DNA from: an uncultured bacterium
GTDB lineage: Bacteria; Krumholzibacteriota; Krumholzibacteriia; LZORAL124-64-63
Length of the DNA: 64,000 bases
Reading direction: 5' to 3'
Assembly: GCA_937864225.1 (NCBI GenBank)
Contig: CALMJK010000004.1
Location: 137,949 to 201,948 of the forward strand
The notes below the pieces were generated by a model, which made no database searches, was not told the origin of the DNA, and worked only from the letters and a program-made list of their open reading frames with translations. Shown here one piece after another: positions 15,524-64,000 of this stretch. Both the position numbers and the translations under genes were made by a program. Each line of letters starts with the position of its first letter. Position 1 is the stretch's first letter.

Positions 15524-16057
15524 TCAGTCGCGCGGCAGCAGCGTGTCGGCCCGCTCGACGATCTCGAGCAAGCGCGGGCCATGCAGCGCGATCGCCGCGA
15601 AGGCGGCCGCGAGGAAGGGGAAAGCTCGCTGCGGCGGGTGGCCCAGGAACACGAGCAGCACGCCGAACATCCCGGCCGACTCGAAGCAGGCCCAGGCGAC
15701 GACGCAGCGGGTCTGTCCGTACGTCGCCACGGCGAACAACTTCTGTTCGCGCGGCGTGGCGGCGGCGGGGACGGCCGGGGCCGGAGTGATCGTCGTCGCG
15801 GCGTGCGGGGCCTTGCGCAAGGCCGCGTCGGTGAACGAAATCCGCCAATAGAAAACGCCGCCGGCCAGCGCCGCGATGGCCAGCGACGCCAGCGCGAGCA
15901 GAGCGAACGACGGCGTCGCCGGCGGGACCGGACGCTGCGACGCGACCAGGAAGGCGACCGCGGCGTAGAGGGGTGGGCCCGCGAGGAACGCGCCCCAGAT
16001 GATGAACGTCGTGCGCGCCGGCTTGGCGAGTTGCGCCCTGAACTGCGGCGAGATCAT
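15524..16057 (-). CDS. Hypothetical 4-TM membrane protein (177 aa)
   Basis: ATG overlaps the upstream stop (ATGA). Four hydrophobic segments and a WACFESAGMFG motif. Confidence 0.7.
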   Translation of the reverse strand: MISPQFRAQLAKPARTTFIIWGAFLAGPPLYAAVAFLVASQRPVPPATPSFALLALASLAIAALAGGVFYWRISFTDAALRKAPHAATTITPAPAVPAAATPREQKLFAVATYGQTRCVVAWACFESAGMFGVLLVFLGHPPQRAFPFLAAAFAAIALHGPRLLEIVERADTLLPRD

Positions 16058-17301
16058 GCCTGCACTCCCTTGAGCGGGTCCTTCAGTCCGTGGCCCGTGA
16101 TCAGCGCGACGACGGTCTCGTCCGGCCGGACGAGACCCGCGTCCCTCGCCGCAATCACGCCGGCCAGCGCCGCCGCGGCCGAGGGCTCGGCCCAGACGCC
16201 GGCGAGACGGGCGAGCAGCCCGATCGCCTCGAGGATGGAGGAATCGGTCACGCTCAGGAACCCGCCGCCGGACGCGGCGACCTGACGCCACGCCTTGACT
16301 CGGTTGCGGGGCACGCCGACGGCGATCGAGTCGGCGACGGTGCGCGCGACCACGGGCGTCACCGCCCGCAGGATTGCGGGACCGTCGAGGCGCGTCGGGT
16401 CCGGTATCGCGGCCCAGGCGCGGACGAGCGGCGCGGCTCCCGACGCCTGCACGCCATAGACGCGCGGCCGCTTCGCGATCAGGCCCAGCTCCTCCAGCTC
16501 GGCGAACGCCTTGCCCGTCGACGACACGATGCACCCATCCCCCACGGGCGCGAACACGGCATCGGGCGCCGCGAAGTCGAGCGACAGCGCGATCTCGAAG
16601 GCGGCGGTCTTCTTGCCCTCGACCAGGATCGGGTTGTGCGCGCAGTTGCGGCTGTACCAGCCGTGCGCCGCGATCTCGCGCAGCGAGATCGCGAAGGCCT
16701 CGTCGTAGGTGCCGTCCACCTTCACCACGTCGGCCCCGTGCACGGCAAGCTGCGCGAGTTTGGCGGCGGGCGCGGCCGCCGGCACGAAGATCGTCGCGGG
16801 CAGGCCGGCGCGGGCGGCCAAGACGGCGAGGCTGGCGGCCGCGTTGCCGGTGGAGGCGCAGGCCAGGCGCGTTGCGCCCGCCTGCAGCGCGTGCGCCACG
16901 CCCACGGCCGCGGCGCGATCCTTGAGGCTGGCCGAAGGCAGGCCCGTGTCGTCCTTGAGCAGCAGCCCCGGCAGGCCGAGCGCCGCGCGCAGGCGCGCCG
17001 GCGCATGCAGCGGCGTGTCGCCCAGCGACCAGGCCGCGTGCGCGGCGATGGGGCGCAGCGGCAGCAGGGGGGCGAAGCGCCAGAGGTCGGGGCGCCCGCG
17101 CGCGGGAAAGGGGCGCTCGCGGTCGAGGTCGCGCGCGACACCAGCGTAATCGTAGACGGCATCGAGAATGCCGTCGAGGCCGCAGCGGTCGCAAACCCAG
17201 CCGGCATGCTCCCGCGGAAACTCGCGGGCGCAGACCACGCAGCGCCAGCCGAGCCAATGGCGGTTGAAGACGGCCACTTCCCGGCCGCTCGTCGCGCTCA
17301 T
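16054..17301 (-). CDS. Threonine-synthase-like PLP-dependent enzyme (fold type II)
   Basis: N-terminal CxxC...CxxC, SASLKDR PLP-lysine, CASTGN, GKKTAAFEI, VGDG and ITGHGLKD. Confidence 0.88.
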   Translation of the reverse strand: MSATSGREVAVFNRHWLGWRCVVCAREFPREHAGWVCDRCGLDGILDAVYDYAGVARDLDRERPFPARGRPDLWRFAPLLPLRPIAAHAAWSLGDTPLHAPARLRAALGLPGLLLKDDTGLPSASLKDRAAAVGVAHALQAGATRLACASTGNAAASLAVLAARAGLPATIFVPAAAPAAKLAQLAVHGADVVKVDGTYDEAFAISLREIAAHGWYSRNCAHNPILVEGKKTAAFEIALSLDFAAPDAVFAPVGDGCIVSSTGKAFAELEELGLIAKRPRVYGVQASGAAPLVRAWAAIPDPTRLDGPAILRAVTPVVARTVADSIAVGVPRNRVKAWRQVAASGGGFLSVTDSSILEAIGLLARLAGVWAEPSAAAALAGVIAARDAGLVRPDETVVALITGHGLKDPLKGVQA

Positions 17302-17549
17302 GCCTTGCCGCCGCCGTCCGGCGGCTCTCCCCCGCGGTAGTGCTCCTCGGAGATGCGGCGGATGCGATCCCGCAGGTCTTCGTGCGTGATGACGCCCCTC
17401 TCCACGAGGAGCTGCACCATGGCATCGTGGGCGAGTTTGGTGCCCACGGCGAGCTCGCCCACCGTGACGTCGCGACGTCGGCCGTCCTGCACGATGGTCA
17501 GGGCGATCTCGTCGCGAGCGTGCCGGCGGCGTTTCAGGAAATCGAACAT
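17298..17549 (-). CDS. Small hypothetical protein (83 aa)
   Basis: ATG 2 nt after the ygeW stop; its own stop overlaps the next ATG. MFDFLKRRR...AMVQLLVERGVITHEDL. Confidence 0.7.
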   Translation of the reverse strand: MFDFLKRRRHARDEIALTIVQDGRRRDVTVGELAVGTKLAHDAMVQLLVERGVITHEDLRDRIRRISEEHYRGGEPPDGGGKA

Positions 17550-17551
17550 GG

Positions 17552-18529
17552 CTACATCGTCAGGGCCATCAGGCCCTTCGCGGTGTGCAGACGGTTCTCG
17601 GCCTGGTCCCAGACCGCGGACTGCGGGCCGTCGATGACCGCGTCGGCGACCTCGAGGCCGCGACTGGCCGGCAGCGGGTGCATGTAGATCGCCTCCGGTC
17701 GCGCGAGCCTCATGCGGCGCTCGTCGCAGATCCAGCCGGGATACTTTTCGATCGTCTTGACGGCCGCTTCGCGCCGCGGCTCGTGCACCAGGCAGCCCCA
17801 CGACTTGGGGTACACGACGCTCGCGCCCGTGAAGGCCGCGTCCATGTCGTCGACGACCTCGAACCTCGTGCCCATACGGGCGGCGTTGGCCGCCGCCTGC
17901 GCCAGGATCTCCGGCTCGAGCCTGAATTCGGGCGGGTGGGCGAGCACGACGTCCAGTCCGGCGCGCGTCATGATCAGGATCTCCGATTGCGGCACGGAGA
18001 GCGGACGGACGTAATTCGGGGCGTACGTCCACGTCACGGCGATCCTCCGCCCGCGCAGGTCGGCGCCGAATTTCTCGCGGACCGTCATGAGATCGGCCAC
18101 GGCCTGGCAGGGATGGTAGCGGTCGCATTGCATGTTGATGACCGGCACTCGGCTGATGGCCGCCACGTCGCGGATGAAGGTGTTGCCCTTGCCCCAGTCG
18201 CAGTTGCGGATGGCGATGCCGTGGCCATACCGCGACAGCACCAGCGCCGTGTCCTTGGCGGTTTCGCCGTGACTGACCTGCAGCTTCTCCGGCGTGAGAT
18301 CGTGAGCGTGCCCGCCGAGTTGGGTCATCCCGGCCTCGAACGAGTTGCGCGTTCGCGTGCTCTGTTCGAAGAACAGCATGAACAGCGTGCGGTCGCGCAA
18401 CAGGGCGTGCGGCTCGTCGCGGTGGAATTTGCGCTTGAGGTCGGCGGAGGTCTCGATCAGCAGCTCGATCTCCCGGTCGCTCCACTCCTGCGTATCGATG
18501 AAATGCCGCCCGCGCATCGGCTTGCTCAT
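17552..18529 (-). CDS. ygeW: YgeW-like carbamoyltransferase (OTCase superfamily)
   Basis: STRTR, HPCQ and MHPLP motifs, plus the YgeW-type segment TWTYAPNYVRPLSVPQS...LAHP. GAGGAGG RBS. Confidence 0.8.
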   Translation of the reverse strand: MSKPMRGRHFIDTQEWSDREIELLIETSADLKRKFHRDEPHALLRDRTLFMLFFEQSTRTRNSFEAGMTQLGGHAHDLTPEKLQVSHGETAKDTALVLSRYGHGIAIRNCDWGKGNTFIRDVAAISRVPVINMQCDRYHPCQAVADLMTVREKFGADLRGRRIAVTWTYAPNYVRPLSVPQSEILIMTRAGLDVVLAHPPEFRLEPEILAQAAANAARMGTRFEVVDDMDAAFTGASVVYPKSWGCLVHEPRREAAVKTIEKYPGWICDERRMRLARPEAIYMHPLPASRGLEVADAVIDGPQSAVWDQAENRLHTAKGLMALTM

Positions 18530-18579
18530 GTTCGTCTGGTCCTCCTCGTTCGGGCCGGCGCCGCGCCGCCGGCGCTCTC

Positions 18580-19797
18580 TCAGGGGCGAGGGGCCGCGGC
18601 GACGAAGGCGTCCGGGAACGCGGCGTAGAACGCGCAGGCCGCCACGAGGTCGTCGACGGGCACGTGCTCGTCGGGCGCGTGCGCCTGCGCCTCCTGGCCA
18701 GGGCCGAAGCCCACGCAGGGAACGCCGTGCAGCCCGTTGATCGCCACGCCGTTGGTGCTGAAGGTCCAGCGCCCCACTTGGGGAGTTCGGCCGTGCACCG
18801 CGGCGTGCGCGGCGACGCCGGCCCTGACCGCGGGGTGATCCTCGGCCAGCACCCAGGTCGGGTAGTACTTCTCCATCGGATAGACGAGGCCCGTGTAGGA
18901 AGGGGTCTCGTAGGCGAGCGTGCGCACGTCGGCCTCGACCCCGGCGGTCTCGAGCGCCTCGCGCACCTCGCGCAGGGCGGTTTGCCGGTCCTCGCCCGCG
19001 GTCAGGCGGCGGTCGATGTGCAGCTCGCAGCGGTCGGGAATCGCGCAGAGGGAAGGGGATTCGGAGCCGATCCAGGTCACCGCGCAGCTCCCCCGGCCGA
19101 GGAACGGGTCGTCGGCGAGGCGCTCGTGGAGCGCCGCGATGGCGGGAACCGCGGGTGCGAGGCGGTAGATGGCATTCACGCCGCGCTCGGGCGCCGAACC
19201 GTGGCAGGATCTGCCGCGCGTCGCGACGCGGATCTCCATCCGGCCCCGCTGGCCGCGCGTGAGCGCGAGTCCCGTGGGCTCGGTGGACACCACGACTTCC
19301 GGCCGCAGTACACCCTCCTGCAGGATGTAGTGCCAGCAGAGGCCGTCGCAGTCCTCTTCCATGATCGAACCGACCAGCCAGACCTGGCAGTCCGGAGCGA
19401 GGTCCATCTCCTTGATGAGGCGCGCGGCGCCCAGCATGGCCGCCATGCCGCCCTTCTGGTCGGCCGCGCCGCGCCCGTAGACCCGTCCGCCGTCGATTTC
19501 GCCGCCGAACGGATCGCGAGTCCATTGCCGGGGGTCGCCGGGGCCGACCGTGTCGAGATGGGCGTCGAAGGCGATGACACGCGGCCCGTCGCCGATCCGC
19601 CCCAGCACGTTGCCCAGGCCGTCGATCTTCACCTCGGCGAAGCCGAGCGCCCGCATCTGCTGCGCGACGCGGCTGACGATCGCCGATTCCTTGCCGGTGG
19701 GGCTGGGGATGGCCACCAGTTCGCTCAGCAGCTGGGCCAGCGGATCGCGCAGCCGTCTCGCGGCGGCCAGGATGGCGGCGCCGCCGTCGCGGCTCAC
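18580..19797 (-). CDS. ygeY: YgeY family M20 amidohydrolase
   Basis: FDAHLDTV, GRGAADQKGG, YgeY signature EEDCDGLCW, TEPT and FGPG.E..AH. GTG start overlaps the ssnA stop. Confidence 0.9.
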   Translation of the reverse strand: MSRDGGAAILAAARRLRDPLAQLLSELVAIPSPTGKESAIVSRVAQQMRALGFAEVKIDGLGNVLGRIGDGPRVIAFDAHLDTVGPGDPRQWTRDPFGGEIDGGRVYGRGAADQKGGMAAMLGAARLIKEMDLAPDCQVWLVGSIMEEDCDGLCWHYILQEGVLRPEVVVSTEPTGLALTRGQRGRMEIRVATRGRSCHGSAPERGVNAIYRLAPAVPAIAALHERLADDPFLGRGSCAVTWIGSESPSLCAIPDRCELHIDRRLTAGEDRQTALREVREALETAGVEADVRTLAYETPSYTGLVYPMEKYYPTWVLAEDHPAVRAGVAAHAAVHGRTPQVGRWTFSTNGVAINGLHGVPCVGFGPGQEAQAHAPDEHVPVDDLVAACAFYAAFPDAFVAAAPRP

Positions 19798-21173
19798 GTC
19801 TTCGCTCCCCGCCGCAGGCCGCGCATCGCGTCCCAGACGCGCCGGGCCGCCGCCTGGCAGCGGGCCGCCTCGACGGGGGCCGGATCGCCCGCGCGGTGGA
19901 TCCGGCGCCCGCCGACCCACACCTCGGCCACGTGCTGGGCCTGGATCCCGAAGAGGATCATGCTCAGCCAGTTGTCCGTCGCCAGCGGCGAGCGCATGAA
20001 CGGGTGGCAGACGAGGAAATCGGCGGGTGCGCCGGCGTCGAGCGTGCCGAACGGTTCGCGGAAGCACTCGCGCGCCAGGCGGAAGCCGCCCAGCCAGAAG
20101 CGCTGTGCACCGCGGAAGCCGAGCGGGCCGCGCCCCGGCTCGTTGCCCCGGAAGAACGTCGCGCGCATCTCGGCCCACATGTTGTCGTCCACGCCGTCCG
20201 TGCCGAAGCAGGCGCGGTCGGGGAAACGGTCGACCGGCGCCCGTCCGACGCCGTTGTTCATGTTGGAGCGGCCGTTGTGCACCAGCCACGCGCCGCGCTC
20301 CTCGATGGCCTGCAGGTCGAGCGGCGTCAGGTCCACGCCGTGGGCGAACAGGCTGCCGGGGCGTACGAGTCCATGCGCCACCAGGCGCTCGACCGGATCC
20401 TTCCAGCCGCGCTCCTGGCACACCTCGCGGTCGGTGGTGCCTTCGCACAAGTGCATGTGCACGCCGGCCTGGTGCTTTTCGCACAGCTGCGCCAGGTCGT
20501 CCAGCGTGTCGTCTTCGAGCGTGAATCCCGCGTGGGCTCCGACCAAACCGCAAAACCGTGGCACGTCGCCGGTTCTGCGCTGCGCGACTTGGCGCAGCCA
20601 GCGATCGTTCTCCTCGAGCGTGGTGTCGCGGCTGCCTGGCCCGCCGCGGTCGGTGACCTCGTAGCAGAGACAGCCGCGCAACCCCACCAGGGACAGGCCC
20701 TCGGCGATCCGGTCGAGCGAGCCGCCGACGGAGGTGAGGCTGGAGTGATGATCGAACAGGAGTGTCGTGCCGACGCGCGCCGCCTCCCACGCGCCCGCCG
20801 CCGCGCTCAGGAAGACCGCTTCCGCGTCGAGAGCGCGATCCAGTGGCCACCAGATCTCCGTGAGGATCTCGGTGAAGCTGCGCGGCACATTGCGCGGGGC
20901 GGGCATGCCCGGCGCGAGCGACGAGTAGAGGTGCGTGTGCCCGTTCACATTGCCGGGCATGACAACGGCGCCGTCGAGGTCGCGGACATCTTCGCCCGCC
21001 TCGGGCGTCAGGCCGCTCCCGCGCGCCACGATCCGATCGCCGCGCACCCGCAAGTCCACGCTTTCAACGCGGGGGGACGGGTCCGCGGACAATTCGGGGG
21101 GGAAATAATCCAGGACGCGTCCGTTGCGCAGCAAGAAGCCCGGCCCGTCGCCGGAGGGAGTCTTCGCGGCCAA
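19794..21173 (-). CDS. ssnA: SsnA-like metal-dependent amidohydrolase
   Basis: GHTHLYS, GLRGCLCYEVTDR, GAHAGFTL.D, HMHLCEG, HNGRSNMNNGVG and FGTDG. GAGGAGG lies 7 nt before TTG at 21173. Confidence 0.85.
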   Translation of the reverse strand: MAAKTPSGDGPGFLLRNGRVLDYFPPELSADPSPRVESVDLRVRGDRIVARGSGLTPEAGEDVRDLDGAVVMPGNVNGHTHLYSSLAPGMPAPRNVPRSFTEILTEIWWPLDRALDAEAVFLSAAAGAWEAARVGTTLLFDHHSSLTSVGGSLDRIAEGLSLVGLRGCLCYEVTDRGGPGSRDTTLEENDRWLRQVAQRRTGDVPRFCGLVGAHAGFTLEDDTLDDLAQLCEKHQAGVHMHLCEGTTDREVCQERGWKDPVERLVAHGLVRPGSLFAHGVDLTPLDLQAIEERGAWLVHNGRSNMNNGVGRAPVDRFPDRACFGTDGVDDNMWAEMRATFFRGNEPGRGPLGFRGAQRFWLGGFRLARECFREPFGTLDAGAPADFLVCHPFMRSPLATDNWLSMILFGIQAQHVAEVWVGGRRIHRAGDPAPVEAARCQAAARRVWDAMRGLRRGAKT

Positions 21174-21268
21174 GGATCGGCCTCCTCGGAAGCGGGAAAC
21201 GGCGGTGAACGCTGCGGCCAAGCCCGTCTACAATCAACCCGCGGGAGCCAAAGTTCAAGCCCGGAACT

Positions 21269-21337: not shown

Positions 21338-22390
21338 TCACGGGGTTCGCAGCTCCTCCGGCTTGACGAAGATGGCGTTGACGACCGATTCGCGAACCAC
21401 CCAGACGGAGTTGTCCAGGGAAGTGCGCATGTAGATGCCGGCCGGCTGATCCCCCGCCTCGGCCCGCGCGGCGCCGAAGAACAGCGTGACGCTCGTGCCG
21501 TCGCGCAGGCCGAGATCGATCTTGCGTCGCGCCTTCCAAAGGCCATAGGCCAGCGGATCCCCGTCGGGGTCGGCCACGTCGATCGCGCGGACCGTGGAGG
21601 CAGAGTTGAGGATGGCGTCGACCTTTGTCTTCAGGGCCGCCGCCTCGCGCGGACGCTTCAGGCGCCACTCGTAGATGCTCCGGTCCTGGGCCGGGGGCGG
21701 GGTGGCTTGGCCCGTGTCGGCAACGGCGGGTGCGGGCGGCGGCGGCGGGAACACTTTCACCAACTCCGTGATCTTGCCGCCGTCGTCGATGACGAGCGAC
21801 TCGATGTCGTTGCGCTCGCCCTTGTACGCCTGCAGGTCCACGAAGTGGCTCGACTTCGGGCGGGCCGGGCCGTTCCAGAGGCCCAGGGGCGAGAGCAGGC
21901 TGACGCTGCTCAGGTACACGGCGCTGCTGTCGCGCCGGCGCACGAATTCGCCGACCGAACCGAGCGGCTTGCGCCCAACCAGCAACCGGAGCTGCGGCTG
22001 GAAATCCTGGCCGAAGACCGTGATCGCGACCGCCCCGTCGCCGGCCAGGCCGTAGTCGGCCAGCACCTCGGCCTTGTCGGAGCGGAATTCACCCCTCAGG
22101 TCGCCCAGGTTTCGCAAAAGGTCGTCGATCCGCTGCTGGCTGGCGGGATAGCTGTACGACGTGCGCACGACCCAATGGTCAGGCAGGCGTTCGATCACGA
22201 CCGCAGTGCTGTCGGGGCCCCAGCCCAGAGTGATCCGGGTGATCGCGGTCAGATCCAGCGTCTGGTCCGAGAGGAGCGCTTGAACCGGCCGGCTGACGGC
22301 GCGGCGGTGCGTGACACGTTGCGCGACGCTCAGCGCCACGAGAACCACCAGGGCGGCCAGCAACCACCACAGGACGCGTTGTTTCAACAT
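21338..22390 (-). CDS. DUF4340 domain protein (membrane-anchored)
   Basis: N-terminal TM and two DUF4340-like repeats (SYPASQQRIDDLL..L; LADYGL / PLAYGL). Follows a GldG-like gene. Confidence 0.75.
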   Translation of the reverse strand: MLKQRVLWWLLAALVVLVALSVAQRVTHRRAVSRPVQALLSDQTLDLTAITRITLGWGPDSTAVVIERLPDHWVVRTSYSYPASQQRIDDLLRNLGDLRGEFRSDKAEVLADYGLAGDGAVAITVFGQDFQPQLRLLVGRKPLGSVGEFVRRRDSSAVYLSSVSLLSPLGLWNGPARPKSSHFVDLQAYKGERNDIESLVIDDGGKITELVKVFPPPPPAPAVADTGQATPPPAQDRSIYEWRLKRPREAAALKTKVDAILNSASTVRAIDVADPDGDPLAYGLWKARRKIDLGLRDGTSVTLFFGAARAEAGDQPAGIYMRTSLDNSVWVVRESVVNAIFVKPEELRTP

Positions 22391-22404
22391 TGTGCATCGC
22401 CTCC

Positions 22405-24150
22405 TCAGACCTGCGTCTCGCCGCGAATGGCGAGCGAATCGCGGTAGGCCTGGGCTTCTCGCCGTCGCATCGCGGCGCGGGAAATGCCATAGACGGCCAG
22501 CAGCACCGGCACCAGCGCGACCGCCAGCAATCGGAACAGGAGCTTCTCGCCGGCGCTCACCGCCCGGATCGTGCGGTCGGTGCTGGCCTTCGAGCGGATC
22601 GAGATCAGTTCCGCGCCGTGCGCGAGCGCGTCCACGGCGTTGAGCAGCAGCGACGCGTTGTCCGCGGCCGAGATGACGCTGTCGTCGAACATCTTGGCGT
22701 CGCCGATCAGCACCAGCTGTGCCGGTTTGGGATCCAACGCCGGAGCGCTGTCGCCGGCGAGACGCCCGGCGGCGCTGGTGTCCGGCCACGCGGGCAGCGG
22801 ACGTCCCTGGAAGGCGTCCGGGAACACGCCGGCGACGTGCACGGCGAGCGGCTGCTGGCCCAGGAAAGCGCGCTCGGAGGCGTCGAAGTAGCTCCCCGGC
22901 ACGACGCCGTCGTTGAATTTTTCGCGCCAGCTGCGGTCGCTGGAGCTGAAGAGCGGCGTGGCCTCGAGCTTGAGACGCTTCAGCTCGGAAGCGCTCATGT
23001 TGATCGGTGTGCCCCACAAGAAGAGCAGGCTGCCGATGCGATTGGTGAGCGACGAGGCCTCGTTCATCTGCGGCTGCGTGACGAGTATCTGCATCGGAGC
23101 CCGCACCGGTTCGCTGGTCTGGAAGCGCAGGCCTCCCACGTTTTGGGTGCGCGGGATGCTGAGCACCTGGGTGCTGGCGTCGAAGAAATGGTCGGTCATG
23201 ACCTCGAGGCCGAAGGACCTGAGCATCTCTTCCAGGCCGGACTGGCGGCCGGTGGCGCTGATCGTGAAGCCCCCGCGCGCTCCCGGCGCGTAGTCGTACT
23301 CGTGGGCCTGGACGGCGAAGACGGCGTTCATGCCGTTGCTCAACGCCCTGTTGATCTCGAAGACCTGTCGCTCGTTGAGGTCGGACGGGTTGACGACCAG
23401 CAGGACCGTCGCGTCGTCCGGTATCTTCGAGTCCCTGGTAAGCTCGATCGGTTCGACCTCGTAGTGTTCCTCGGCGAGCAGCTGGCGGATGCCCTGGTGG
23501 ACATCGCGCGGCTCCGGCGGCTGCACGCCCGCCTGCAGGTACATCATCATGGTCTGCTGGTCGATCGCCTGGCGGGGGGCGTACACGGCGACCTTGGCCT
23601 TGGTCTCCGAGGTCAGGCGGTACACGCGCGAGACGAGCTCGTACTCCAGCGTCGCCAGCGACTGCGGAAAGACCTGTGGGATGACCTCCTCCGGTTTGTC
23701 CATGTAGGCGATGGTCATCGCGCTCCAGATGATCTTGACGCCAATCTCGTCGCGCTCCACCGACTGCACCTGGAAGGGACGGATCCCCTTCTGGGCGAGC
23801 TGTTTTTGCAGCTCCTCGTCATCCTGTGGATTGATGACCTGGAACTGCAGCATGCCGTTGCTCGCGCCCTGATAGTCGCGCAGCTTGTCGGTGACGTCGC
23901 GCTCGAGGGTCTTGAGCTCCGTGGGCATCTTGTCCGGGAGCGTGACGTAGTACTTCACTTGCACGGGGACCTTCAGGTCGCCGAGGATCTTCACGGACGC
24001 GGGCGACATCGTGTAGAGCCCGTCCTCCGTCAGGTCGAGACGGGCTCCCGGCATGCCGCCCAGGACGATGACGAGGAAGACCGCGATCGCCAGCAGCAAA
24101 ACCGCGGCTACTCCGAAGGTCACGCGGAAATTCGTGCGCTTGCGAGTCAT
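22405..24150 (-). CDS. GldG-like ABC-transporter auxiliary/substrate-binding protein
   Basis: RLDLTEDGLYTMSPAS, LEYEL, LLVVNP and N...LLNAVDAL motifs; N- and C-terminal TMs. Confidence 0.85.
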   Translation of the reverse strand: MTRKRTNFRVTFGVAAVLLLAIAVFLVIVLGGMPGARLDLTEDGLYTMSPASVKILGDLKVPVQVKYYVTLPDKMPTELKTLERDVTDKLRDYQGASNGMLQFQVINPQDDEELQKQLAQKGIRPFQVQSVERDEIGVKIIWSAMTIAYMDKPEEVIPQVFPQSLATLEYELVSRVYRLTSETKAKVAVYAPRQAIDQQTMMMYLQAGVQPPEPRDVHQGIRQLLAEEHYEVEPIELTRDSKIPDDATVLLVVNPSDLNERQVFEINRALSNGMNAVFAVQAHEYDYAPGARGGFTISATGRQSGLEEMLRSFGLEVMTDHFFDASTQVLSIPRTQNVGGLRFQTSEPVRAPMQILVTQPQMNEASSLTNRIGSLLFLWGTPINMSASELKRLKLEATPLFSSSDRSWREKFNDGVVPGSYFDASERAFLGQQPLAVHVAGVFPDAFQGRPLPAWPDTSAAGRLAGDSAPALDPKPAQLVLIGDAKMFDDSVISAADNASLLLNAVDALAHGAELISIRSKASTDRTIRAVSAGEKLLFRLLAVALVPVLLAVYGISRAAMRRREAQAYRDSLAIRGETQV

Positions 24151-24151
24151 C

Positions 24152-24877
24152 TTAGTACTTCCTCCCTTCCAGCCAGATCGTGTTCAAGGCCAGGAACGCG
24201 ACCGTCAGAGCGAGAAAGTAGGTCACGTCGCCCAGGCTTATCACGCCGCGGATCATCGACTGGTAGTGGGGCAGCAGGCCGATCGCGTTTTGCAGAAAGG
24301 ATCCGAATCCGGAGAACCAGCCGTCGATGGTGGCGGCCACCGCCGGGATTCCCAGCAGGAAGAACAGGAAGCAGGCGACCATGCCGAGAATGAAGGCGGA
24401 GATCTGGTCCCGCAGCAGGCCCGAGCAGAAAATGCCCACGCTCATGTAGAGCGCCCCGAGAAGGGCGGCGCCGATGTAGCCGCTGGCGATCATGCCGCCG
24501 TCCGGATCGCCCAGCAGGCCCACCATGAGCGGAACCGTGAGCGTGCCCGCCAGCGCCACCAGGTAGAAGGCGGCGGCTGCGAAATACTTGCCGAGCATGA
24601 CCTCCGACGCGCGCATCGGGAGGGTCATCAGCAGCTCGAACGTGCCGCTGCGTTTGTCCTCCGCCCACAACCGCATCGTGAGCGCCGGGATGAAGAAGAT
24701 GAGGAACAGCGGCAGGTTGCCGAAGAAATCGCGCATGTCGGCCTGGCCCTGGAGGAAAAAGGGCGTCATGAACAGGCCGCAATTGAGGACCAGAAAAACG
24801 ATGATGAAGATATAGGCGATCGGGCTGTTGAAGTACGCCGCGAACTCGCGCCGGAAGATCGTGCCGATGTTACGCAT
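24152..24877 (-). CDS. GldF-like ABC-2 permease
   Basis: FRREFAAYFNSPIAY, PALTMRLWAEDKRSGTFELLMTLP and GKYFAA. Confidence 0.88.
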   Translation of the reverse strand: MRNIGTIFRREFAAYFNSPIAYIFIIVFLVLNCGLFMTPFFLQGQADMRDFFGNLPLFLIFFIPALTMRLWAEDKRSGTFELLMTLPMRASEVMLGKYFAAAAFYLVALAGTLTVPLMVGLLGDPDGGMIASGYIGAALLGALYMSVGIFCSGLLRDQISAFILGMVACFLFFLLGIPAVAATIDGWFSGFGSFLQNAIGLLPHYQSMIRGVISLGDVTYFLALTVAFLALNTIWLEGRKY

Positions 24878-25709
24878 GGAGCCCGACCCCCTTCCCGCGC
24901 CCGCCCTGCTTGGTCAGCGCGATGAAAGTGTCTTCGAGGGCGAGACGCGCCTTCTGCATGGCCACCGCCTCGGCCGCGTGCCCGCGCGCCAGCGCCGCGG
25001 CGGCCGCCTCCAGATCCCGCTCGAACTGCGAATCCGCGCCGAAGGCCTGGCGCGTGAGCTCGGCGATTTTGCCGTCCGCCACGATGCGCCCCTCGTTGAT
25101 GATGATCACGCGGTCGGTGACCGGCGGCACCTCCTGCAGGATGTGCGTCGAGAAGATGATGCTCTTCTGGCTCGCCAGGCTGCGGATGAGGTCGCGGATG
25201 CCGAGGATCTGCAGCGGGTCGAGGCCGCTGGTGGGCTCGTCGAGGATCAGGATGTCGGGGTCGTGGATGAGCGCCTGCGCGAGCCCCGTCCGCTGGCGGA
25301 AGCCCTTGGACAGCTCGTTGATGGGGCGTTTCAGTTCGGTGACCAGTCCGCACGCCTGCACGCACCAGTCGAACCGGGTCTTCAGGCGGGCTCCCTCGAG
25401 CCCGCGGGCCCGGCCCACGAACTCCAGGTACTCCTGGACGTTCATGTCCACGTACAGCGGCACGCTCTCCGGCAGGTAGCCGATGCGGCCGCGCACCGCC
25501 AGCGGTTGCTCCAGGACGTCGACCCCATCCACGGTCACGGTGCCTTCGTCGGGCGCCAGGAACGTGGTGATGATCTTCATCGCCGTGCTCTTGCCCGCGC
25601 CGTTGGGACCCAGGAAGCCGAGGATCTCGCCCTGGTCCAGGCGGAACGACACGGAGTTGAGCGCGACGGTCGTCCCGAAACGTTTCGTGACGTCGCGTAC
25701 CTCGATCAT
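24870..25709 (-). CDS. GldA-like ABC ATP-binding protein
   Basis: GPNGAGKST Walker A, LSKGFRQR signature, LILDEPT Walker B and STH. Confidence 0.92.
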   Translation of the reverse strand: MIEVRDVTKRFGTTVALNSVSFRLDQGEILGFLGPNGAGKSTAMKIITTFLAPDEGTVTVDGVDVLEQPLAVRGRIGYLPESVPLYVDMNVQEYLEFVGRARGLEGARLKTRFDWCVQACGLVTELKRPINELSKGFRQRTGLAQALIHDPDILILDEPTSGLDPLQILGIRDLIRSLASQKSIIFSTHILQEVPPVTDRVIIINEGRIVADGKIAELTRQAFGADSQFERDLEAAAAALARGHAAEAVAMQKARLALEDTFIALTKQGGRGKGVGLHA

Positions 25710-26029
25710 CGCGTGACTCCTCAGGGAACGGTTAACAGGTTAAGGGGACACCCTTGGGGCAAGGCGAGCGCCAGGTTGCCTCCCGCCGCCCCGCGGGCGG
25801 AACGCGCAATATACATGAATGAGGGCGCTCGGTTCCAGTTTGCGGTCGTCGCGATCCCGAAGCGAACGCCATTAAATGCTGTTTTTTGATTTTTCATGCC
25901 CGCCGCAGGGAGGAACTGGCCGACATTTTTGCGGGCCCTAGGGAAAAGTCCAGGCCGGGCGTTATGATACCGTGCGGCCCCCGGGGTCCGCGCCGAGTCG
26001 CCGACCGCCGACGGCCGTGGGAGAGCATC

Positions 26030-61008: not shown

Positions 61009-62316
61009 TCAGCACGCGAGCACGCGCCCGCCGACCACGACCGCCTTCGCCGCGGGCGGCTGGCACAGCACGAGGGCCGCCACGCGGTCGCCCACCTGTT
61101 CGTAGGCGGGGCCGTCGAGGGCGAACAACGCCAGGTCGCAAGCGCGGCCCGGCGCGATCGCGCCGATGTCGTCGCGCCCCAGGCAGGCGGCGCCGCCGAG
61201 CGTGGCCAGCTCCAGCGCCTCCTGCACGCGCAGAGCGGTCGGCCCGTGCGCGACCCGGTGCAGCAGGAGCGCCTGGCGCGCCTCGGCCAGCAGATTCGAC
61301 CCGTCGTTGCTGGCCGAGCCGTCCACGGCCAGGCCCACCGCGCAACCCGCGGCCCGCAGTTCGCGCACGCGGCAGATCCCCGAGCCCAGGCGCATGTTCG
61401 AGGTCGGGCAGTGCGCCACGCCGACGCCGGCGTCGCCCAGGCGGGCCACCTCCGCGTCGTCGAAGAAGATCCCGTGGGCCAGCCAGACGTCGGCGCCGAG
61501 CCAGCCGCAGGACTCGAGAAAGTCCAGCGGGCGCTGGCCGTACGTCGCCAAGCAGTAGGCGTCCTCGTCGCGCGTCTCGGCCAAGTGCGTGTGCAGCCTG
61601 ACCCCCAGGAGGCGGGCCAGGAGCGCCGTGTCGCGCATCAATTCGCGGCTGACCGAGAAGGGGGAGCAGGGGGCGAGCCCGACGCGGATCATCGCGCCGG
61701 GGCGCGGGTCGTGCCACTTCGCGACCAGGCGCTCGCTGTCCCTCAGGATCGCATCGGCGTCCTGGACCACGTCGTCGGGCGGCAGGCCGCCGTCCTTGCG
61801 CGAGCGCGACATCGAGCCGCGCGTGGGGTGGAAGCGGATACCGGCCTCGCGCGCCGCCTCGATCGTGATGTCGATGAGCTCGGCGGACGCCCCGCGCGGG
61901 AAGAGATAATGGTGATCGCTCGTCGTCGTGCAGCCGGACCGCATCAGTTCCTGAAAGCCGCACTTGGCGGCGCGGTGGAAGTCGGCGTCGCGCAGGTTCG
62001 CCCAGACCGGGTAGAGCGTGGTCAGCCAGTCGAACAGGCCGGCGTCCAGCGCGCCGGGCCAGGCCCGCGTGCGCGTCTGGAAGAGGTGGTGATGGGTGTT
62101 CACGAGACCGGGCAGCACCACGCAGCCGGCGGCGTCGAGGCGGCGCCAGCGGTCGCGCGGCACGCCGGCGATGACCGGCGGGCTCGGGCCGGCGCCGACC
62201 TGCGCGATCATCCCGTCCACGGCGGCCACCCAGCCGCGGTCGAGCTGCCGGCGGCGCTCGTCCATGGTGACGAGCGGCGCCGCGTTCTCCAACAGGAAGC
62301 GATCGCGATCGGGCAT
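61009..62316 (-). CDS. 8-oxoguanine deaminase-like amidohydrolase
   Basis: PGLVNTHHHLFQT, FHPTRGSM, LAPCSPFSV, HTHLAET, AHCPTSNMRLGSG and VDGSASND. Confidence 0.85.
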   Translation of the reverse strand: MPDRDRFLLENAAPLVTMDERRRQLDRGWVAAVDGMIAQVGAGPSPPVIAGVPRDRWRRLDAAGCVVLPGLVNTHHHLFQTRTRAWPGALDAGLFDWLTTLYPVWANLRDADFHRAAKCGFQELMRSGCTTTSDHHYLFPRGASAELIDITIEAAREAGIRFHPTRGSMSRSRKDGGLPPDDVVQDADAILRDSERLVAKWHDPRPGAMIRVGLAPCSPFSVSRELMRDTALLARLLGVRLHTHLAETRDEDAYCLATYGQRPLDFLESCGWLGADVWLAHGIFFDDAEVARLGDAGVGVAHCPTSNMRLGSGICRVRELRAAGCAVGLAVDGSASNDGSNLLAEARQALLLHRVAHGPTALRVQEALELATLGGAACLGRDDIGAIAPGRACDLALFALDGPAYEQVGDRVAALVLCQPPAAKAVVVGGRVLAC

Positions 62317-62354
62317 GTCTTCCCCGCGACGCGCGGCCGGTCGGACATTCGGCC

Positions 62355-62383
62355 TTGGGCGCGTTTCCCACGTCAGTTATACT
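62355..62383 (+). promoter_or_regulatory. sigma70 promoter of the xanthine-dehydrogenase-family operon
   Basis: TTGGGC-N17-TATACT, 64 nt upstream of the TTG start. Confidence 0.6.
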
Positions 62384-62447
62384 CGCCCGCAGCCGCGGGC
62401 GCCAGCGGCCGGAAGCGTGCCGCGGCCCCGCGCCGCCCGGAGAGACC

Positions 62448-63329
62448 TTGAAGAACCTGAGCGATTACCGCTACGCGCATTCGCCCGCCGAGGCCGTCGC
62501 GCTGCTGCGCGCCGGCCCGGGGCGGGGGCTTTACGTGGCCGGAGGCACCGACCTCTGGCTGGCCATGCCCCCGGGCATCGATTACGTGGTCGACATCAAC
62601 GGCGCCGGCCTTGCCGCCCTCGAGCGCACCGCAGCCGACGACCTGCGCCTCGGCGCGACCGCGACCCTGCAGCGGATCGCGACCTCACCGCTCTGCGCCC
62701 GCTACGCGGGCGGCGCAGTGGCCGACGCGGCGCGGGCTTGCGCCAATCGGCAGGTGCGCACCACGGCGACGCTCGGTGGAAATCTCTGCAATGCTCTGCC
62801 CGCCGCCGACATGGCGCCGATCCTGCTGGCCCTCGACGCGCGGATCCGGCTCGGAGACGGAGAGCGCGAGGAAACGCGGCCGCTGGACGATTTCTTCACC
62901 GGGCCGCGCCGCACCATCCTGGACGGCCGCCTGCTGCTCGCGGTGGAATTGCCGGCGCAGTGGGGCGCGGCGCGGGCCTGTGCCCGCAAGCTCACCCGTA
63001 CGGCCGAGGACATGGCGCTGGTGCACGTGGCCGTGGCTCTCGAACTGGACGGGCCGCTGATCCGCGCGGCCCGCATCGCGCTCGGTGCCGTGGCGCCGAT
63101 CCCCTGCCGCGCCACGGTCGCCGAAGACGCCCTGGTCGGGCTCAAGGTGACCGCCGCCAATGCCCCGTCCGCGATCGCGGCCGCGGCGCAATTGGCCGCC
63201 ATGCGCGCCGAGCCGATCGACGACCACCGCGCCTCGGCGGCCTACCGTCGCGCCATGGTCGCCGTGCTGGTGAAGCGCCTGGTGCGGGAGCTGACCGGAC
63301 TTCCATCGCTCGATGGAGAACGGCCATGA
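62448..63329 (+). CDS. Xanthine/CO dehydrogenase family FAD-binding subunit
   Basis: AGGTDL, VRTTATLGGNLCNALPAAD, RIALGAVAP and DDHRASAAYR. GGAGAG precedes TTG at 62448. Confidence 0.9.
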   Translation: MKNLSDYRYAHSPAEAVALLRAGPGRGLYVAGGTDLWLAMPPGIDYVVDINGAGLAALERTAADDLRLGATATLQRIATSPLCARYAGGAVADAARACANRQVRTTATLGGNLCNALPAADMAPILLALDARIRLGDGEREETRPLDDFFTGPRRTILDGRLLLAVELPAQWGAARACARKLTRTAEDMALVHVAVALELDGPLIRAARIALGAVAPIPCRATVAEDALVGLKVTAANAPSAIAAAAQLAAMRAEPIDDHRASAAYRRAMVAVLVKRLVRELTGLPSLDGERP

Positions 63330-63862
63330 AGGTGGAGCTGACCGTCAACGGCGCGCCGGTCGCCTGGGAGATCGCGCCCGGCGATCGGCTGCTCGATTCG
63401 CTGCGCGCGCACGGCTGCGCGTCCGTCAAGCGAGGCTGCGAGACGGGGGATTGCGGCTGCTGCACGATCCTGCTCGACGGCGAGCCGGCCGCCTCCTGCG
63501 TCGTGGCGACGGCGGCGGCCCGCGGCCGCAACGTCGTGACGCTCGAGGGGCTGCGCGGCGATCCCCTGCTCGCGCGGCTGCAGGAGGCATTTCTGGCCGA
63601 GGGCGCCGTGCAGTGCGGCTACTGCACGCCGGCGCTGCTGCTCGTGGCCTGGACGCTGCTGCAAAGCGGCGGACCCGTGGACGAGGCGACGGCGCGCCAT
63701 GCCCTCTCCGGATCGCTCTGCCGCTGCACCGGCTACGTGAAGCCGCTGCGGGCGCTGCTGGCGGTGGCCGGCCGCCCTGGGGCGCAACTGCGGGGGGGGC
63801 GGGGCGAGAACGGCCTGCGGGGGCGGCCCGCCGCGGCCCCGCGGGGGGAGGAACGGCCGTGA
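63326..63862 (+). CDS. Xanthine dehydrogenase family (2Fe-2S) subunit
   Basis: GCETGDCGCC, SC, VQCGYCTP and CRCTGY. ATGA overlap. Confidence 0.92.
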   Translation: MKVELTVNGAPVAWEIAPGDRLLDSLRAHGCASVKRGCETGDCGCCTILLDGEPAASCVVATAAARGRNVVTLEGLRGDPLLARLQEAFLAEGAVQCGYCTPALLLVAWTLLQSGGPVDEATARHALSGSLCRCTGYVKPLRALLAVAGRPGAQLRGGRGENGLRGRPAAAPRGEERP

Positions 63863-64000
63863 GCGTGGAGGCGCCCGAGCGCGCGGCCGGCCCGAACGGC
63901 GTGGTCGGCGCGAACGCGACGCGCGTGGACGGGCTGGCTCTTGTGCGCGGCGAGCCGGTCTTCACGGACGACGTCCATCCCGAGGGCATGCTCTGGGCCA
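63859..64000 (+). CDS. Molybdopterin-binding subunit, N-terminal fragment (truncated by window end)
   Basis: GTGA overlap; VVGANATRVDGLALVRGEPVFTDDVHPEGMLWA matches Mo-subunit N-termini. Confidence 0.8.
   Translation, partial: MSVEAPERAAGPNGVVGANATRVDGLALVRGEPVFTDDVHPEGMLWA

Follow-up and report, generated by a model that had tools for sequence, protein, structure and literature searches.

The 64,000 nt stretch analysed here, referred to as the window, lies on contig CALMJK010000004.1 (positions 137,949 to 201,948) of an uncultured Krumholzibacteriota bacterium (assembly GCA_937864225.1) and carries six co-directional genes on its minus strand (Table 1). These encode an SsnA-like amidohydrolase, the amidase YgeY, a short carbamoyltransferase (CTase), an 83-residue protein (orf83), a pyridoxal phosphate (PLP) enzyme resembling threonine synthase (ThrC), hereafter ThrC-like, and a protein with four transmembrane segments (4-TM ORF, for open reading frame). 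An earlier note on this DNA had read the genes as an ssnA-ygeY-ygeW purine-degradation operon in which ThrC-like occupies the place of YgeX, the lyase that converts 2,3-diaminopropionate (DAP) in anaerobic urate degradation. The proposed gene order, location and tight coupling were all recovered. The GTG start of ygeY overlaps the stop of the ssnA-like gene (GTGA), and ATGA overlaps join orf83 to ThrC-like and ThrC-like to the 4-TM ORF, giving 4 nt overlaps at three junctions; a 50 nt gap with a GAGGAGG ribosome-binding site precedes the CTase gene, and 2 nt separate it from orf83. The window has a G+C content of ~70 % and its raw ORF lists are noisy as a result; third-position GC content (GC3) and family searches (Pfam, NCBIfam) were used to select real ORFs, and all six genes displayed coding-type GC3 (0.86–0.92). 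Scans of the operon for riboswitches, promoters and terminators returned nothing above chance.

Table 1. Position and basis of assignment of the operon genes and of further pathway genes in the window
Feature	Position	Strand	Basis or remark
SsnA-like ring-opening amidohydrolase	19794..21221	-	475 aa from TTG start; true start possibly slightly downstream
YgeY, M20 amidase (pathway ureido-group hydrolase)	18580..19797	-	NF009555, TIGR03526
Short OTC/AOTC-like CTase, 325 aa (OTC, ornithine carbamoyltransferase; AOTC, acetylornithine carbamoyltransferase)	17552..18529	-	Family scores, all below cut-off
orf83, 83 aa	17298..17549	-	GC3 and coupling; no family match
ThrC-like fold-type-II PLP enzyme, 415 aa	16054..17301	-	PALP domain and N-terminal CxxC...CxxC Zn ribbon
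4-TM ORF, 177 aa	15524..16057	-	GC3 and ATGA overlap; no family match
8-oxoguanine deaminase (makes urate)	61009..62376	-	NF006055, 631 bits (cut-off 532)
YgfM/XdhB-like flavin adenine dinucleotide (FAD) subunit of a molybdenum hydroxylase	62271..63329	+	Stop-to-stop frame; homology 62448-63290
Fused [2Fe-2S]-molybdopterin XdhD-like protein, 970 aa, 5' part	63295..64000	+	Runs past window end (C4:201243-204155)

Among the operon proteins, only YgeY exceeded a curated family cut-off. It scored 505 bits against NF009555 (cut-off 321; model positions 5–397 of 399) and 496 bits against TIGR03526, shares 49 % identity with E. coli YgeY and is a true member of the YgeY family and a true ortholog. 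The best family for the SsnA-like protein was SsnA itself, with 320 bits against NF005540 (model positions 16–440 of 444; cut-off 444) and 294 bits against TIGR03314 (cut-off 455.5). Although both cut-offs were missed, SsnA remained by far the best family over a full-length match, the next scoring just 109 bits. The protein shares 35 % identity with E. coli SsnA, and its counterparts head the cluster in relatives at 57–79 % identity.

The ThrC-like protein contains a PALP domain (227 bits). Its best family matches are all named 'threonine synthase', and public records label its relatives as threonine synthase or as generic PLP enzymes. It nevertheless fell below the ThrC cut-offs, scoring 248.6 of 303 bits against NF006050 and 154.2–154.7 of 167.1 against TIGR00260, in a search that passed the cut-off in 14/14 reference genomes used as a control. 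It did not match TIGR01747 (DAP ammonia-lyase), and thus lies outside YgeX/DpaL by sequence. In a phylogenetic tree the window type (A), the type found in family f2 (B) and a third type (C) formed a single clade with support of 99/97. Its sister group was the crystallised class-I ThrCs, and the other Zn-ribbon ThrC homologs of the phylum fell outside it. Those other homologs (families f3–f9, with ThrC-family matches of ~150 bits) were considered as the same enzyme and rejected, as they display 30–36 % identity, keep the arginine discussed below, have no CTase nearby and form a separate clade.

Comparison of 102 clade members with ten class-I ThrCs (four from the PDB and six that are the housekeeping copies of Synergistota genomes) revealed a consistent set of active-site replacements. 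We tabulated positions at which ThrC never varies and the clade departs from it, using Thermus thermophilus numbering checked on the alignment. The PLP lysine K127 is kept within SLKDRA and is invariant across the clade. Thr88 is replaced by Ala in 102/102 members (A154 in the window protein), Ser155 by Ala or Gly in 100/102 (A221), Arg160 by Leu, Met, Cys or Thr and never retained (L226), Asn188 by Asp in 102/102 (D255) and Thr239 by Asp in 102/102 (D324). Arg242 is replaced by Ser, Ala, Val or Cys, whilst Val153 has become Arg in 101/102 members. We take T88, N154/S155, R160 and N188 to be the ligands of the O-phosphohomoserine phosphate in ThrC; what was measured is their pattern of conservation. 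These data suggest that the ThrC-like proteins form a distinct and widespread clade that split from the class-I threonine synthases and no longer has their phosphate-binding pocket (Thr, Ser, Arg, Asn). The two invariant aspartates gained in the pocket would suit a cationic beta-amino leaving group over phosphate, and exchange of an Arg/Asn/Thr/Ser pocket for Leu/Asp/Asp/Ala is what would be expected of an enzyme that had come to expel ammonium in place of a phosphate dianion.

The remainder of the genome gave no indication that the enzyme makes threonine. In this 2.87 Mb assembly (98.6 % complete), ThrC-like was the sole ThrC-family match, at 154.7 bits. Homoserine dehydrogenase (PF00742) had no match in the genome, whereas it was found in 14/14 reference genomes, and homoserine kinase was likewise not found (best TIGR00191 score 22 bits), so the substrate of ThrC cannot be made. 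A true, high-scoring ThrC and a window-type copy were found together in several of the 81 genomes of the phylum sampled (G029, G040, G058 and G077). In Synergistota, clade members (at least 457 bits against alignment A1) were present in 41/101 genomes, usually alongside a 350 aa housekeeping ThrC (225–276 bits), and in six genomes we confirmed that the two are separate genes sharing 34–37 % identity. The housekeeping assignment was rejected on these three grounds: the threonine pathway is absent, the active-site residues are replaced and true ThrC paralogs coexist. The absence of hom and thrB also implies auxotrophy for threonine, and probably methionine, in an organism for which automated annotation would still list a 'threonine synthase'.

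The distribution of ThrC-like was largely complementary to that of YgeX. In the window's own genome, tblastn with E. coli YgeX returned nothing, and the best TIGR01747 score was 27.5 bits, on another gene. The 27 sampled genomes of the window's family (f1) all carry YgeY, and three of them showed no ThrC-family match. In one of these (G066) a window-type cluster is present but cut by a contig end, whilst the other two (G065 and G069) have YgeY-YgeW-YgfK-YgeX-like-Xdh clusters instead, with YgeW 64–66 % identical to that of E. coli. In G077, a type-C ThrC-like gene comes directly after a canonical YgeY-YgeW-Xdh-YgfK cluster, and YgeX is missing from the whole genome. Across many phyla, YgeX was absent from 30/35 genomes carrying ThrC-like. 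Of 101 Synergistota genomes, 58 were YgeY-positive, comprising 35 with ThrC-like only, 14 with YgeX only, five with both and four with neither; exactly one of the two enzymes was therefore present in 49/58. YgeY was kept in 40/41 Synergistota genomes with ThrC-like. The earlier note had looked to mutual exclusivity with ygeX across yge clusters as a check on its reading and had named two findings that would overturn it, a co-regulated ygeX elsewhere in the genome and a sole thrC that makes threonine. The exclusivity is strongly favourable though not absolute, no DAP ammonia-lyase occurs in the genome, and ThrC-like is the sole ThrC-family gene but misses the ThrC cut-offs, lacks the phosphate site and stands without hom or thrB. 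The reading survives on both counts.

Some of the genomes surveyed displayed further features of these families. At two Krumholzibacteriia loci, L037 (G070) and L038 (G077), a type-C ThrC-like gene that is divergent and atypical in composition accompanies a canonical-looking yge cluster, whose YgeY and YgeW are 72–73 % and 65–66 % identical to the E. coli proteins; the arrangement looks like lateral acquisition of a whole cluster. A single in-frame TGA is present in three YgeY-like M20 genes of Synergistota (G176:C6:42105-43250, G187:C1:324239-325387 and G206:C112:15477-16631), two of them directly adjoining YgeX; these may be YgeY paralogs with selenocysteine, acting in a selenium-linked pathway. 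One in-frame TGA was also present in two ThrC-family paralogs (G167:C4:43691-44827 and G170:C38:41742-42881).

Gene neighbourhoods placed ThrC-like among purine-degradation genes well beyond its own phylum. Close relatives (59–84 % identity) keep four genes, SsnA-like, YgeY, short CTase and ThrC-like, whilst family f2 retains just the paired CTase and ThrC-like genes, beside XdhC, XdhB and XdhD genes. Scanning of GTDB species representatives yielded 80 loci from more than 15 phyla, at 41–63 % identity; among the carriers are Chloroflexota, Synergistota, Bacillota, Izemoplasmatales, Atribacterota, KSB1, Acidobacteriota, Ignavibacteriota, Desulfobacterota, Bacteroidota and Thermotogota. In 62/80 loci one or more pathway genes lay within 10 kb of ThrC-like, most often CTase (36), followed by Xdh (27), YgeY, SsnA and the carbamate kinase YqeA (24 each), and YgfK and HyuA (8 each). 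YgeX was found within this distance in 0/80. The Izimaplasma (yqeB-hyuA-ssnA-xdhA-xdhC-xdhB-ThrC-like-ygeY-CTase) and Aminiphilus (ssnA-hyuA-xdhD-xdhC-CTase-ygeY-ThrC-like) loci are essentially complete pathway clusters, and a typical order in Anaerolineae was (YgeY)-CTase-carbamate kinase-ThrC-like. Within Krumholzibacteriia, the interval from ygeY to the short CTase gene repeatedly holds a gene whose secreted product has a lamin-tail domain (LTD; L012:6234-6869, L016:7479-8426, and also L014, L015 and L017), and a two-component system is inserted at the same place in L012 and L018.

The carbamoyltransferase differed from the enzyme named in the earlier note, which had labelled its gene ygeW. 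The CTase reached 192 bits against TIGR03316 (cut-off 500) and up to 199 against the YgeW models overall (NF005538 cut-off 453), with the match ending at model position 331–334, and at 325 aa against 396 it shares 35 % identity with YgeW; the label does not hold. Scores against the OTC (266 of 306 bits) and AOTC (251 of 288) models were higher, although every cut-off was missed, and the best PDB matches were the Xanthomonas AOTCase and OTCs. A role as the arginine-pathway OTC of the genome was rejected, since a canonical OTC (359 bits) sits on contig C16. In relatives the short CTase gene lies next to that of ThrC-like, and in many phyla it is followed by carbamate kinase.

In the Synergistota sample, canonical YgeW was present in 12 genomes and the short CTase in 30, with zero co-occurrence among these 42 genomes, and in three genomes (G119, G128 and G211) the short CTase directly adjoins YgeY and the contig also carries YgeX at a distance of a few kb. 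The short CTase is likely a functional substitute for YgeW, and the pathway variant involves two independent enzyme swaps, of the PLP enzyme and of the carbamoyltransferase, rather than one. Strict pairing, in which the short CTase would go with ThrC-like and YgeW with YgeX, was rejected, because all four combinations occur: short CTase with ThrC-like in 23 genomes, short CTase with YgeX in six, YgeW with ThrC-like in six and YgeW with YgeX in three, plus three genomes with YgeW and both PLP enzymes. Such free recombination implies shared intermediates, and is the strongest argument that ThrC-like would take the same substrate as YgeX, namely DAP. Separately, nine Chloroflexota loci (L061, L065, L066, L071, L086, L101, L104, L116 and L124) contain a tandem pair of CTase paralogs, whose identities to the window CTase are ~26–37 % and ~45–56 %, with carbamate kinase and ThrC-like next in order; these lineages might phosphorolyse both ureido groups.

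The genome encodes homologs of the reductive urate gene set (XdhD/YgfM, YgfK, SsnA, HyuA, CTase, YgeY and YqeA), with YgeX alone missing, but in scattered locations, as determined by tblastn with E. coli K-12 proteins and by family scans. As the earlier note had observed, ygeX, hyuA and carbamate kinase are all absent from the window. The far end of the window holds genes for 8-oxoguanine deaminase, a YgfM-like protein and the start of an XdhD-like protein. The YgfM-like gene shows 27 % identity to E. coli XdhB and 31 % to YgfM by tblastn, and the XdhD-like gene is one open frame with XdhC-like and XdhA/XdhD-like matches, 38 % identical to XdhD residues 171–955. The deaminase gene is divergent from the other two; together the three are likely a urate-forming and urate-reducing entry module, 41 kb from the lower-pathway operon. 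A D-hydantoinase-like (hyuA-like) gene, at 328 bits against a cut-off of 393, is found on the same contig ~18 kb past the window end and ~60 kb from the cluster. YqeA exceeds its cut-off on contig C19, and YqeB and YqeC homologs are on C3. The YgfK homolog (C5:~354800-356533, ~600 aa) matches TIGR03315 at model positions 5–398 with 374 bits, below the family cut-off, and has a 2x[4Fe-4S] ferredoxin tail but no GltD-like middle (flavin/NADPH) domain. This protein may be a 2,8-dioxopurine reductase of split or alternative form, served by a separate electron donor.

Two of the six operon genes appear peripheral. Flanked by translational coupling on both sides, orf83 (GC3 0.86) had no Pfam or NCBIfam match, and its only homolog, 68 % identical, was in L010, the closest relative. 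In all other clusters the CTase gene directly adjoins that of ThrC-like, and orf83 is a lineage-specific insert between them. The 4-TM ORF (GC3 0.92) had no family match and no homolog in ~130 related loci or elsewhere in its own genome. A part in the pathway for either, as accessory subunit or transporter, is unsupported by these distributions. All six ORFs of the operon as originally proposed are thus present and look coding by composition, yet these two are lineage-specific additions and not conserved cluster members. Directly upstream of the SsnA-like gene, a GldA/F/G-like ATP-binding cassette module with DUF4340 (window 21338-25739) is syntenic in L010, L011 and L016.

Taken together, these results make it moderately likely that the operon encodes the lower half, in variant form, of the reductive (2,8-dioxopurine) pathway of uric acid and purine degradation, with ThrC-like as a non-orthologous DAP lyase. 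In this scheme the SsnA-like amidohydrolase would open the reduced purine ring and the hydantoinase the hydantoin ring. The short CTase would then phosphorolyse one ureido group of 2,3-diureidopropionate to yield carbamoyl phosphate, from which carbamate kinase could form ATP, and YgeY would hydrolyse the remaining ureido group to give DAP. Finally, ThrC-like would convert DAP to pyruvate and ammonia, as YgeX does in E. coli and Clostridium. That ThrC-like is a pathway enzyme and not a threonine synthase appears highly probable, whilst its equivalence to YgeX as a DAP lyase is a more guarded conclusion that we consider reasonably probable. From the genomic evidence we infer that DAP is the substrate, which products form and what the new aspartates do.

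Several observations weigh against this scheme. The intermediates published for the pathway are (R)-configured (bioRxiv 10.1101/2025.04.24.650524). ThrC-like would as a consequence need activity on a D-amino acid. ThrC-type enzymes normally use L-amino acids, and a D-DAP lyase would be unusual. The ThrC phosphate ligands are those reportedly assigned by Omi et al. in J Biol Chem in 2003, and it is their conservation pattern that was tested here. Both PLP enzymes are present in 5/35 of the cross-phylum genomes and 5/58 of the Synergistota genomes, and in G138 ThrC-like is away from the pathway genes, whilst YgeX, YgeY and YgeW form a cluster. Nominal Fisher tests of the complementary distribution gave an odds ratio of 0.04 and p = 2e-6, a significance that is overstated because the genomes are related. 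There was no nearby pathway gene at 18/80 loci, though many of these are on short contigs. In the window's own genome the hyuA-like, ygfK-like and yqeA genes are unlinked, the first two score below their cut-offs, as does the SsnA-like protein, and completeness of the pathway there is presumed.

An enzyme of the same pathway that catalyses another reaction is the best-placed alternative, although we judge it unlikely. ThrC-like might replace the beta-amino group of DAP with water to give serine, eliminate urea from albizziin (3-ureidoalanine) or perform a stereoisomer-specific step. Cluster association is equally strong under this explanation and the DAP lyase one, genomes with both YgeX and ThrC-like would fit non-identical roles, and several Synergistota ThrC-like genes adjoin extra YgeY-like M20 paralogs rather than canonical YgeY. 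ThrC chemistry finishes with the addition of water. Albizziin, which has a free alpha-amine, is an intermediate in one published version of the pathway (PMC12507026). The earlier note had left DAP and albizziin as alternative substrates; the first is favoured and the second disfavoured, because YgeY is retained in 40/41 ThrC-like genomes, so that both ureido groups are still enzymatically removed. Moreover, no other candidate for consuming DAP was found in 30/35 and 35/40 carrier genomes, and the free recombination of CTase and PLP enzyme types points to the same interface metabolite.

It is more doubtful still that the cluster serves the breakdown (or synthesis) of a ureido or N-heterocyclic compound other than urate or purines, with ThrC-like acting on an unrelated amino acid derived from that compound. 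This would accommodate the retention of just four cluster genes in the genome and its family, where Xdh, YgfK and HyuA are not adjacent, as well as the sub-cut-off scores of the SsnA-like protein and the CTase and the closer resemblance of the latter to acetylornithine and ornithine carbamoyltransferases than to YgeW. However, YgeY is a full-score family member, the window holds XdhD/YgfM-like genes and 8-oxoguanine deaminase, and in other phyla ThrC-like and the short CTase are interleaved with XdhD/XdhA, YgfK, SsnA, HyuA, YgeY, YqeA and YqeB (L068, L084, L094, L108, L110, L111 and G085). The short CTase also replaces YgeW beside YgeY and YgeX in the three Synergistota genomes noted above. 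A divergent Zn-ribbon housekeeping threonine synthase, beside yge genes by chance, would explain the sole ThrC-family gene, the names of its best matches and relatives and the retention of the PLP lysine and overall fold motifs, but is very improbable given that homoserine dehydrogenase and kinase are absent, all phosphate-site residues are replaced (Arg160 in 0/102 members), every ThrC cut-off is missed, bona fide ThrC coexists in carrier genomes and the neighbourhoods are purine-catabolic rather than thrA/thrB.

The oxygen-free urate pathway was solved only in 2025, and neither of the two papers that define it mentions a ThrC-like enzyme (PMC12507026; bioRxiv 10.1101/2025.04.24.650524). In one of the two, YgeX neighbours were scored with PF00291, a general Pfam family that would include the ThrC-like clade unnoticed. 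Our literature search found no paper containing both 'threonine synthase' and 'ygeY', and none describing a ThrC-like variant. We put at about even the prospect that these cross-phylum 'threonine synthases' are a new family of DAP-specific PLP lyases derived from ThrC by charge inversion of the pocket (Arg/Asn/Thr to Leu/Asp/Asp) and, with the short CTase, form the commonest environmental version of anaerobic uricolysis. The pathway is now used to seek gout-relevant and ecologically important purine degraders, in surveys whose markers include YgeX and YgeW. Should ThrC-like and the short CTase do the work of YgeX and YgeW, searches with these markers would miss a large share of urate degraders, and the E. 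coli/Clostridium enzyme set would under-count the pathway, as amongst YgeY-positive Synergistota genomes, where 40 carry ThrC-like and 19 YgeX. Thousands of entries named 'threonine synthase' or 'ornithine carbamoyltransferase' would be wrong and predictions of prototrophy distorted, with automated annotation crediting many threonine auxotrophs, this genome among them, with threonine synthesis. The clade would also be a clean natural case in which a few pocket changes adapted a PLP enzyme to an amine leaving group in place of phosphate.

The closest known system is the reductive uric acid (2,8-dioxopurine) cluster of E. coli and Clostridium, which comprises xdhD-ygfM, ygfK, ssnA, hyuA, ygeW, ygeY, ygeX and yqeA (PMC12507026; bioRxiv 10.1101/2025.04.24.650524). 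Both it and the window operon contain a YgeY ortholog and an SsnA-family amidohydrolase, the latter heading the operon, and ygeW-ygeX is mirrored by the CTase gene followed by that of a fold-type-II PLP enzyme; XdhD/YgfM-like, YgfK-domain, hydantoinase-like, YqeA, YqeB and YqeC proteins are encoded elsewhere in the genome. The two systems differ in that YgeX is replaced here by a ThrC-derived enzyme and YgeW by a 325 aa OTC/AOTC-like paralog, that hyuA, ygfK, yqeA and xdh are unlinked and that the YgfK homolog lacks the GltD-like middle domain. YgeX/DpaL (TIGR01747, TIGR03528) is, like ThrC-like, a fold-type-II PLP enzyme in the same cluster position and with a complementary distribution, and the same substrate and products are proposed for both, but it belongs to a dehydratase-like lineage, whereas ThrC-like derives from ThrC and has an N-terminal Zn ribbon.

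The class-I ThrCs (PDB 2D1F, 2ZSJ, 1UIM and 6CGQ) are the closest sequence relatives of ThrC-like (175 bits) and share with it the PLP motif S-x-K-D-R, the STGN loop, EGxKT and the C-terminal motif TG(H/N)GLKD. ThrC-like differs from them in its new invariant residues D324 and R218, in its catabolic neighbours and in that its genomes lack hom and thrB or have a true ThrC as well. Similarly, the CTase retains the STRTR, HPxQ, KSWG and H-P-L-P type motifs of the knotted transcarbamylases YgeW and AOTCase (PDB 3Q98 and 3KZC). Its alignment with AOTCase (196 bits) runs the full length and, like YgeW, it adjoins YgeY, but it is ~70 residues shorter than YgeW.

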